64,000 nt of DNA, taken from sequence record NC_070991.1. One strand, written 5' to 3'. The number at the start of each line of letters is the position of its first letter. Positions within the stretch are counted from its first letter, which is position 1. The position numbers and the translations under genes were made by a program. This stretch comes from Escherichia phage vB_EcoP_WFI101126. Below are positions 50,639 to 52,681 of the stretch, piece after piece. Under the pieces are notes generated by a model. The model was not told where the DNA came from. It did no database searches and saw nothing but the letters and a program-made list of their open reading frames with translations.

Positions 50639-50950
50639 CTATTTAAGTTTCAGGCTAATATTAAGGTGCATACATGCCCTGTTCTGTACAGCAGCATAGC
50701 TTCTACCGAGCATGTCAGCCATTCTCTGAATAGGCATGAACCCAGCATTACGGATAAGGAACTGATCTTCTTCTTCAGACCACTTAACTCGGATTGAAGC
50801 TCTTGATATTCCGAACTTAGTGCAAGCTGTGTTAACAGCATTCTCCGTTACATTCATAATCTGAGCAACTTCTTTAACCGAGTACTCTTTGATTAATCTC
50901 CGAAGATTTTCAATCTGCATCGGAGTCCATATAGTTCTTCGCGCTTTCAT
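50639..50950 (-). CDS. DNA-binding protein with two GcrA-like HTH motifs
   Basis: Two repeats of W.......L..L........A......NAV (WTPMQIENLRRL...; WSEEEDQFLIRN...). Confidence 0.45.
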   Translation of the reverse strand: MKARRTIWTPMQIENLRRLIKEYSVKEVAQIMNVTENAVNTACTKFGISRASIRVKWSEEEDQFLIRNAGFMPIQRMADMLGRSYAAVQNRACMHLNISLKLK

Positions 50951-51430
50951 ATACCCTCCAATTAAAAAGAAGAAAACTATCAGGGGAGTACACTAGCTCT
51001 GGGCCACGCTGTAGACATCGGCCTACCTTCCACAGCTAATCAGCTAATGTACTCTCCTAATAGTTTATGAATAGGGGGAGGGGACGAATCCTCCCATATC
51101 CTATTAATTAATATTGCATGTAAGATCTAACAATCGGTTGCCTTTGTAGGAATAAGCGTTATGCTAATCCAGCACTAAACTCCCGCCCCCTTAGTGGGCT
51201 GGGTTATTAAAGGGTAACGCCCTTATGGGCTAGTTACATGAATGTTAGTTTGATAGGAGATCTGAAGTCCTATCTCAAAGGACTCTCGTAAGAATCCTTC
51301 ACGATATTACTTATTCAACTCTCGTCGGCTATCTCTCCAAGCCAACCAAGTGTAGATTTTCAACTCTTCAAAATCTTCTGGAGAGAATAGATATTCTTTG
51401 AAGGTGTCACTAAACCACTCTAAAAATTCT

Positions 51431-51631
51431 TCAGTCATAAATACCTCTTGCTTTATAGGTGGTACAGATTAATGTTGCATGTCTTTGGTTATACAGTTCG
51501 AAGTAACGAGGCTTGCTCCAGTCTCTGTCTCTGGTAAAGGATTGAAGAATGAAGTGTCTGTCACATCCAAGCCATTCAGAAACATCCATCGCTAGACGTA
51601 TAGGAGAACCTCTGAATTCCCTCCGCTCCAT
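51431..51631 (-). CDS. hypothetical protein
   Basis: ORF track. Confidence 0.3.
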   Translation of the reverse strand: MERREFRGSPIRLAMDVSEWLGCDRHFILQSFTRDRDWSKPRYFELYNQRHATLICTTYKARGIYD

Positions 51632-52605: not shown

Positions 52606-52681
52606 TGGTGCGCCCTACAGGACTCGAACCTGTAACCAATAGCTTAGAAGGCTACTGCTCTATCCATTGAGCTAAGAGCGC
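52606..52681 (-). tRNA. tRNA-Arg (anticodon UCU), CCA encoded
   Basis: 76 nt; 7-bp acceptor stem with one G-U, D-arm GCTC/GAGC, anticodon loop CTTCTAA, T-arm ACAGG-TTCGAGT-CCTGT, 3' ACCA. Confidence 0.85.

Follow-up and report, generated by a model that had tools for sequence, protein, structure and literature searches.

Two conserved structured RNA modules in a gene-free gap of a Kuravirus genome, one of them a member of an undescribed RNA family found in phage tRNA gene clusters

A gene-free gap of 356 base pairs (bp; positions 50951-51306) in a 64,000-nucleotide (nt) stretch from Escherichia phage vB_EcoP_WFI101126 (record NC_070991.1), the whole of which is called the window below, contains two structured RNA modules on the minus strand. 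Each module is conserved and also occurs without the other, and both have been transferred between phage families that are not related. Module 2, which lies next to the downstream gene, has a fold proven by covariation: an outer stem (P1) of 11-25 bp, a 7-bp hairpin (P2) and ~30 almost invariant nt in the junctions and the loop. It is a member of an undescribed phage RNA family that is found in the tRNA gene clusters of several phage families. Module 1 lies upstream of it, and the support for its structural plan is real but modest.

Results

The gap and its folding

The window comes from a phiEco32/SU10-like coliphage (Kuravirus), and the genes neighbouring the gap are all on the minus strand. 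The 1.5 kb around the gap matched Escherichia phage Ptacy1532 at 99% identity; for SU10, phiEco32, NJ01 and other Kuravirus podophages the value was 92-95%. The original prediction, made from the letters of the window, had described the gap as a structured region without open reading frames (ORFs), and had proposed it as a candidate non-coding RNA or as a regulatory operator of the adjacent DNA-binding protein. The absence of genes was borne out: no ORF of at least 20 amino acids (aa) was found in any frame at 50960-51300, with just two ORFs clipping the edge at 50996. The stated place of the gap relative to the 50639-50950 gene was also correct: on the minus strand, the gap is 5′ of it.

When the folding of the whole gap was compared with that of dinucleotide shuffles, z was -5.0 for the minus strand and -4.5 for the plus strand, and none of the 100 shuffles folded as well. 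The strongest inverted repeat, with 25-nt arms at 50974-50998 and 51042-51066 and a z of -6.95 when folded alone, was absent from the original prediction. Two other inverted repeats had been named there; both are present at the positions given (Table 1), but they are not the main features of the gap. One of them corresponds to the 3′ hairpin of module 1, which is terminator-like; the second, AAGGG/CCCTT, is probably not a native pairing, because the minimum free energy (MFE) and the centroid folds both choose a longer hairpin (H3) instead. The non-coding RNA reading itself proved right. There is RNA-level constraint on the minus strand, seen as compensatory changes, as an excess of G-U over A-C combinations, and as hairpins that relatives have exchanged for others or lost cleanly. 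The stem-loops are kept in related genomes, and those of module 2 covary strongly.

Distribution of the two modules

A BLAST search with the gap alone gave matches in 128 phage records, and the matches split the gap in two. Module 1 (51306-51067) was present in nearly all Kuravirus and Suseptimavirus genomes. Module 2 (51066-50972) was confined to a subset, being present in SU10, MN05, ES17, HC25922 and IME267 and absent from phiEco32, NJ01, 4E8 and SU7. Both modules were found with ~80% identity in N4-like phages (Gamaleyavirus G7C, PhAPEC5/7, E20 and Bas96, and Klebsiella phage KP8). These phages were recovered by the gap part of the query only, not by the flanking genes, and they carry the modules in an ORF-poor island of 1-1.6 kb that also bears tRNA genes. 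With nhmmer, module 1 was found in every Kuravirus, Suseptimavirus and Gamaleyavirus-like locus fetched, and nowhere else.

Among Kuraviruses module 1 is 96-98% identical, versus 84-96% for the flanking genes. It is kept at ~77% identity in HC25922, IME267 and SU7, where both flanking genes differ and the helix-turn-helix (HTH) gene that follows the gap in the window is not at this locus. In both phage families the element starts directly after a stop codon (UAA-UAUCGUGAAGG), despite unrelated upstream ORFs; in the window, module 1 begins one base after the stop codon of a 43-aa ORF that is not homologous to the ORF preceding the element in N4-like phages. Because the modules are kept with different flanks, and module 1 starts at the stops of unrelated ORFs, they are self-contained units and not appendages of their neighbours. 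No similarity to the elements was found in Escherichia coli genomes and plasmids, and their origin is therefore neither in the host nor on plasmids. Among 185,579 bacterial and archaeal species genomes there were two pattern matches only; both were rejected by the covariance model described below, and they are therefore read as chance.

The N4-like islands (Gamaleyavirus loci L009 57-1719, L004 1811-3017 and L016 704-1893) lie between gp47.x and tRNA genes and have few ORFs, or none, over ~1-1.6 kb. They carry a second copy of the first two hairpins of module 1 (H1-H2) right after a stop codon, ~165 nt of additional hairpin-rich sequence upstream (e.g., CUGACG...CGUCAG and AUGGCC...GGCCAU), and a conserved stretch, UUUUCGUAGCGAUUAUGCGG, 3′ of module 2. 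These islands may hold more undescribed RNA elements.

The fold of module 2

Module 2 is built from P1, the junction J1/2, the P2 hairpin, the junction J2/1 and the return strand of P1. Its conserved core runs in the order GAUUAG, P2 with a GG..GGCCGAU-type loop (consensus RGGNNGGYCGAUR), and then (N)CGUGGCCCAG. Eleven distinct sequences were aligned with plain MAFFT, and the structure tested comprised a 24-pair P1, a 7-pair P2 and a 4-pair pseudoknot between the loop and the junction. In this alignment 96.8% of the cells were paired and 11 pairs changed on both sides, and none of 500 column shuffles reached either value; when the partners were slid by 1-3 columns, 37-47% of the cells paired. 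A covariance model, R1, was built from this alignment, and scored the copy in the window at 104 bits (E = 2e-29).

In a 33-sequence model-based alignment, 95.4% of the cells were paired (34-48% in the slid controls) and 30 of the 34 pairs changed on both sides, in 208 cells, pair counts that are inflated by the fitting of the alignment to the model structure and by the relatedness of the sequences. All 23 pairs of P1 changed on both sides in this alignment, and all 7 pairs of P2 covaried. The fold is secure because of the independent MAFFT result and of the wholesale replacement of the P1 sequence. Cells with G-U outnumbered cells with A-C (81 versus 26), and from this it can be deduced that the RNA is on the minus strand of the window.

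The GGCC of J2/1 (51005-51002) may pair with the GGCC of the P2 loop (51022-51019) to form a pseudoknot, as judged from the sequences. This pairing is possible in 100% of the cells, and the changes observed are one-sided C-to-U changes only. At 51033-51048 an octamer is repeated in tandem, as AUUAGCUG-AUUAGCUG in minus-strand letters (CAGCTAAT twice on the plus strand), so that the upper 5′ strand of P1 repeats J1/2 and the start of P2; an alternative pairing register of module 2 is thus possible.

Module 2 belongs to a family of phage RNAs

A first pattern, GGCCGATN{6,20}GTGGCCCAG, returned 120 viral loci, mostly by chance. Two of these loose-pattern loci (L073 and L137), on viral contigs of 52 kb and 154 kb, proved real, with R1 scores of 57-64 bits, the same core and wholly different stems. 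A scan of metagenomes with a 15-mer likewise gave mostly chance matches, and at least seven true loci, of the same two phage groups. With a tighter core pattern 27 IMG/VR loci were obtained, all of which scored 48-105 bits with R1. The contigs of ~155-160 kb with module 2 are Ackermannviridae (Det7, SFP10, PhaxI, Vi01, and Dickeya and Klebsiella relatives), and the 52-kb contig is Escherichia phage Mangalitsa, with relatives in Yersinia and Erwinia phages. No common neighbouring protein genes were seen across the module 2 loci.

A 44-nt core of module 2 was found in 247 GenBank phage records, in 143 of them at 99% identity or more, and it is almost never annotated. Between phages of Salmonella, Escherichia and Klebsiella this core keeps 99-100% identity, whereas compensatory changes have wholly replaced the stems. 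An identical core within rewritten stems speaks against a generic hairpin and for a specific ligand, partner or catalytic centre.

A covariance-model search had been suggested as a check of the original prediction, and its outcome was divided: no Rfam family was recovered, and the purpose-built model R1 did find relatives of module 2. At the gathering threshold of Rfam 15 the only match in the window was a tRNA-Arg (52609-52681), and with E up to 10 (window 50800-51500, locus L280 5100-6500 and locus L286 4800-4885) there was only sub-threshold noise over the elements. No description of either module, be it as a Kuravirus, N4-like or Ackermannviridae non-coding RNA, by motif sequence, or as a stable RNA of a tRNA cluster, was found in the searchable literature.

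Module 2 in tRNA arrays

Outside Kuravirus, module 2 lies in tRNA arrays, on the tRNA strand and often 0-7 nt from a tRNA located with ARAGORN. Six Ackermannviridae loci have it 2 nt upstream of tRNA-Tyr. In locus L274 it directly abuts tRNA-Arg (0 nt upstream), and in KP8 it follows the annotated tRNA-Leu by ~3-13 nt, depending on where the P1 boundary is placed. In L286 a 72-nt module 2 unit, 3 nt after tRNA-Asp and 7 nt before tRNA-Pro, occupies a tRNA-sized slot. In the window, a tRNA-Arg (anticodon TCT; 52606-52681, minus strand) lies ~1.3 kb upstream of the gap, and this tRNA, the nearest, is ~1.5 kb from module 2. It is on the same strand, and the Kuravirus modules sit loosely in the sole tRNA neighbourhood of the phage. 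In Ptacy1532 an HNH endonuclease gene is found just past the tRNA-Arg.

No tRNA or tmRNA was detected within the gap. Neither ARAGORN nor the Rfam tRNA model (RF00005) found a cloverleaf on module 1 or 2 in the window or in 30 loci, and the true tRNAs adjoining the modules were detected; module 2 is therefore not a tRNA. A tRNA-like ACCA 3′ end was also considered and rejected, for some Ackermannviridae have ACCA at this place and others CUAA. The modules might instead be decayed remnants, that is, tRNA pseudogenes or a degraded gene without a function of their own. The tRNA size of module 2 in some phages, its place in tRNA slots and the tRNA-Arg upstream of the gap would fit such an origin. 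We consider it very improbable, given the lack of a cloverleaf, the better conservation of the gap than of the neighbouring genes, and a core identity of 99-100% combined with compensatory replacement of the stems, which is the opposite of decay.

Two further settings deserve mention. In L274 (4592-5994, on a 95-kb viral contig), module 2 is fused to tRNA-Arg and tRNA-Cys, and the next ORFs resemble, by eye, a YqeY/GatB-type protein and RNA ligase 2 (KxHG motif); on this resemblance the setting would be an RNA-repair neighbourhood. In Ackermannviridae (L280 5770-6084 and L073 299-475), 180-390 nt separate tRNA-Asn from module 2, with no annotated gene in most records, and this stretch may hold further non-coding elements.

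The structural plan of module 1

The plan of module 1 was drawn from alignments and single-sequence folds, which agree, and the folding z of the module is -3.14. It comprises five hairpins (H1 to H5), an invariant block and a terminator-like 3′ hairpin (Table 1). H1, H3 and H5 are replaced by other hairpins in different clades. At the position of H1, for example, N4-like phages have CCAAAGG-UUAGUA-UCUUUGG, and the counterpart of H3 in relatives is GCUCA/UGAGC, with a closing pair that passes through the series G-C, G-U and A-U. H2 shows two compensatory pairs (G-C to A-U and A-U to G-C) between Kuravirus and N4-like phages. In Uz1, H4 has lost one base on each strand, and G7C is without the entire hairpin, a clean deletion. 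The sequences of H5 are clade-specific and each still forms a hairpin; SU10 has an A-U to G-C change.

The MFE folds of several relatives join CUAAC (51248-51244) to GUUAG (51131-51127), in a proposed long-range helix that is 100% paired and invariant. The first bases of the invariant block are the 3′ strand of this helix, and the rest of the block is predicted to be single-stranded; apart from one A/G position the block is identical in all module 1 sequences. The hairpin at the 3′ end is nearly invariant in all relatives, and the GenBank record of 4E8 annotates a terminator there. As expected of an intrinsic terminator it has a GC-rich stem-loop (GGGAGG-8 nt-CCUCCC at 51095-51076, extended by AAUAGG/CCUAUU), and in some relatives it is followed by the tail UAUUUAUU.

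In the helices that can be aligned, 97.9% of the cells pair, versus 30-44% with slid partners. RNAalifold, run on a plain MAFFT alignment, recovered the structure in part only, and because hairpins of unequal length misalign, H4 and H5 were judged by eye.

An AUG lies within the invariant block (51114-51119), with AGG or AGA 6 nt before it, and a stop codon follows after 2-5 codons. The peptides would be MQY, MQT or MQ in Kuraviruses and MQYRV or MQHRV in N4-like phages. The stop falls just before, or abuts, the 5′ arm of the terminator-like hairpin (to ~51100), an arm that a halted ribosome would cover, and a translation-coupled attenuator is possible. As a coding sequence (CDS), this mini-ORF of 3-5 codons was rejected, because its peptide is not conserved. 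More generally, we find it hardly credible that the gap codes for a very small protein, or for several. The records of PhAPEC7, IME267, XT32, nithesis and Bas96 do put short CDSs on the homologous DNA, but there is no ORF of at least 20 aa inside the gap in the window, the annotated ORFs vary in frame and strand between records with translations that are not conserved, and the indels between relatives remove or swap whole hairpins, not codons. Short 'hypothetical protein' CDSs placed over the modules (L004 2573-2695, L019 1481-1621, L026 1084-1197, IME267, XT32 and 101114UKE3) are likely annotation artefacts.

Table 1. Positions of the two modules, their parts and their surroundings in the window
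Feature	Position	Strand	Description
Module 2	50972..51066	minus	P1 stem, GAUUAG, P2 hairpin, CGUGGCCCAG, P1 return strand
P1, 5′ strand	51042..51066	minus	inverted repeat arm
J1/2	51036..51041	minus	GAUUAG, conserved junction; invariant in 32/33 aligned sequences
P2	51009..51035	minus	hairpin CUGUGGA / UCUACAG, 13-nt loop AGGUAGGCCGAUG
J2/1	50999..51008	minus	CGUGGCCCAG
P1, 3′ strand	50974..50998	minus	inverted repeat arm
Module 1	51067..51306	minus	~240 nt structured RNA; five hairpins, invariant 19-nt block, terminator-like 3′ hairpin
H1	51277..51300	minus	GAAGGAUUCU-UACG-AGAGUCCUUU; 10-bp hairpin including G-U pairs, UACG loop; MFE folds
H2	51252..51274	minus	GAUAGGA-CUUCAGAUC-UCCUAUC; conserved 9-nt loop CUUCAGAUC
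5′ strand of proposed long-range helix	51244..51248	minus	CUAAC; closes the H3-H4-H5 junction
H3	51214..51237	minus	GUAAC-UA-GCCC-AUAA-GGGC-GUUAC; MFE and centroid folds; overlaps AAGGG/CCCTT repeat
H4	51182..51203	minus	CCC-A-GCCC...GGGC-GGG; stem kept, loop variable
H5	51149..51170	minus	variable hairpin, GG/CC closed; by inspection, not structurally aligned by MAFFT
Invariant block	51114..51132	minus	UGUUAG(A/G)UCUUACAUGCAA = UGUUAGRUCUUACAUGCAA, 19 nt
Terminator-like extended hairpin	51070..51105	minus	AAUAGG...GGGAGG-AUUCGUCC-CCUCCC-CCUAUU; the GGAGG/CCTCC repeat
Named repeat 1	51076-51081 with 51090-51095	plus-strand coordinates	GGGAGG pairs CCTCCC
Named repeat 2	51210-51214 with 51220-51224	plus-strand coordinates	AAGGG pairs CCCTT
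Upstream 43-aa ORF	51307..51438	minus	stop codon abuts module 1; context only
Shine-Dalgarno of HTH gene	50954..50959	minus	GGAGGG; read from sequence; 15 nt after module 2
Downstream gene, 103-aa HTH protein	50639..50950	minus	Pfam Sigma70_r4_2, 30.6 bits vs cut-off 25.7; context only

Genes and signals around the gap

The protein encoded downstream had been labelled GcrA-like. This label was not upheld: Pfam gives an HTH of the sigma-70 region-4 type, with further weak matches to Myb/HTH families, and no match to the GcrA family. In SU10 and phiEco32 the protein is annotated in GenBank as 'transcriptional regulator, D5-like'. In XT18 an unannotated insertion of ~300 bp (L002 2054-2366) separates module 2 from the HTH gene, which that record labels 'endonuclease'. 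The SU10 genome paper assigns the region to the early gene block, with transcription by the host sigma-70 RNA polymerase from promoters far upstream, and reports neither a promoter nor a terminator here (PMC4281155). Our consensus scan of the gap found no sigma-70-like promoter and no terminator-like site on the gene strand, and no promoter-like site at the invariant block of module 1. A promoter of the gp36 type (tAATGTAtA) in the arms of P1 was rejected; there were 6-7 matches in 9, and the element also occurs in phages without that sigma factor. A CsrA sponge was rejected as well, since, by inspection, neither the N4-like versions nor the loop of module 2 conserve the GGA motifs.

These data bear on the proposal that the gap acts at the DNA level, as a terminator together with a promoter or operator for the downstream HTH gene. 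The gap does lie directly upstream of this gene and contains long inverted repeats, and the 51076-51095 hairpin is annotated as both terminator and promoter in 4E8. We nevertheless find the proposal improbable. It is at odds with the outcome of the consensus scan; moreover, compensatory changes that pass through G-U, with a 3:1 excess of G-U over A-C, are a mark of RNA pairing and not of protein-DNA contacts. The operator is largely refuted by the distribution of the modules: module 1 is found without a local HTH gene in HC25922, IME267 and SU7, both modules are found in N4-like phages, and module 2 is found in Ackermannviridae. The operator half of the original prediction is thus not supported.

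Discussion

In our interpretation, the gap holds two independent structured RNA modules of the minus strand, which are part of an early polycistronic transcript and would be released from it as stable, trans-acting small RNAs (sRNAs); we give this interpretation an even chance. Discrete, stable RNAs would arise when host RNA-processing enzymes cut the modules out of the long transcript. Where module 2 lies in a tRNA array, its 3′ end would be set by RNase P cleaving at the adjoining tRNA, and in Kuravirus and N4-like phages the 24-bp P1 might be a substrate of RNase III in addition. The 5′ and 3′ ends of the modules would be held together by a stem, as in tRNA. The invariant core of module 2, probably folded by the GGCC:GGCC pseudoknot, and the invariant single-stranded block of module 1, ahead of the terminator-like hairpin, would then act in trans, and each module would bind a factor conserved among Enterobacterales. 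In their role they would resemble what is suspected of rnaC and rnaD, two stable RNAs of T4.

Several points weigh against this interpretation. No tRNA adjoins module 2 in Kuravirus, so that RNase P cannot set its ends there. We infer both that the RNAs are discrete and stable and that they act in trans. The pseudoknot is likewise something that we infer, because only one-sided changes support the pairing, and the inflation of the pair counts in the 33-sequence alignment has been noted above. In module 1, three pairs change on both sides, no better than in shuffles, and covariation cannot test the long-range helix, which is invariant. Finally, the run of U residues of an intrinsic terminator (at least 5 of the 8 positions directly after the stem) is missing from the 3′ hairpin in the window, where the tail is CCUAUUCA.

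The nearest parallel to module 2 is given by rnaC and rnaD of T4, also called species 1 and 2 RNAs. Like the relatives of module 2, they are small, structured RNAs other than tRNAs, encoded on the tRNA strand of a phage tRNA array and beside a tRNA; rnaD starts 1 nt after tRNA-Arg. The location in a tRNA array is shared by the relatives of module 2, but not by the copy in the window. The T4 RNAs, for which no function is known, presumably leave the transcript through tRNA processing. At its end rnaC has a tRNA-like T-arm and acceptor, a feature absent from module 2, and the module 2 motif occurs in several phage families rather than one. Homology was rejected, as there was no match in sequence or structure: R1, run with filters off on T4 69000-74000, gave a best score of 7.6 bits (E = 0.98), and this hit was not over rnaC or rnaD.

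Alternatively, the modules could be cis-acting elements of RNA processing or stability. Module 2 would be a cleavage signal between polycistronic units, cut by a host RNase (RNase III on the 24-bp P1) or by itself, as an undescribed small ribozyme, and module 1 would be a 3′-end stabiliser of the upstream mRNA. We regard this, the main rival, as possible, but as less likely than not. In its favour, module 2 always stands between same-strand units, 0-7 nt from tRNAs or 15 nt before a Shine-Dalgarno sequence. The RNase III sites of the T7 early transcript (R0.3-R1.3) are also structured hairpins between early polycistronic cistrons, and module 2 in the window presents its near-perfect 24-bp duplex just 5′ of the next ribosome-binding site. 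For a substrate defined as about two helical turns (at least 20 bp) of near-perfect double-stranded RNA, however, the count is 24 of 25 pairs in the window and in N4-like phages, 14 bp in Ackermannviridae and 11 bp in L286. RNase III is thus not the common mechanism, since a P1 of 11-14 bp is too short for a generic site. The T7 sites have no conserved apical core, whereas module 2 keeps its invariant core where P1 has shrunk. Moreover, RNase P handles tRNA arrays unaided, and an element that served for processing alone could do without a core of 100% identity across phage genera.

Self-cleavage would agree with the architecture of module 2. Small self-cleaving ribozymes (HDV-like theta, hammerhead, twister, pistol and hatchet) and module 2 share a size of 70-95 nt, variable helices around a conserved core (~30 invariant nt in module 2) and a probable pseudoknot, and both are phage-borne within a few nt of tRNA genes. 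Such ribozymes are common beside phage tRNAs, theta ribozymes reportedly being an example. HDV-like ribozymes are nested double pseudoknots, and module 2 is instead an outer stem with a nested hairpin whose loop would pair with the 3′ junction strand. None of the Rfam models for twister, pistol, hatchet, hammerhead or HDV-like ribozymes matched module 2; with E up to 10 no ribozyme family of Rfam 15 did so, a lack of match that neither helps nor excludes the ribozyme.

A related explanation, unlikely in our judgement, is that module 2 might represent a new class, either an undescribed self-cleaving ribozyme or a decoy of RNase P or tRNA processing, carried in the tRNA islands of virulent enterobacterial phages. 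It would be exchanged across Ackermannviridae, Schitoviridae, Gordonclarkvirinae and Mangalitsa-like phages, and module 1 would be a rarer orphan RNA travelling along.

As for module 1, the comparison is with bacterial sRNAs that derive from 3′ untranslated regions or end in a terminator and that have a conserved single-stranded seed. It resembles them in its start at a stop codon, its invariant block of 19 nt (unpaired by prediction), and its GC-rich 3′ hairpin. It differs from seed-type sRNAs in its weak U tail and, with 240 nt and five hairpins, in being larger and more structured than is typical.

Several hundred sequenced phages carry module 2 without an annotation for it, among them members of well-studied and therapy-relevant groups such as Vi01, Det7, CBA120-like phages, PhaxI, SU10, G7C and KP8. 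Annotators currently leave the region blank or add spurious 'hypothetical protein' genes to it. An identical 44-nt core amid compensated stems is the kind of constraint usual for a ribozyme, an aptamer or a specific binding site for a host factor, and the family is experimentally tractable. Module 2 is a second, and far more widespread, example of the fifty-year-old puzzle posed by rnaC and rnaD, namely the role of stable RNAs other than tRNAs in phage tRNA clusters.

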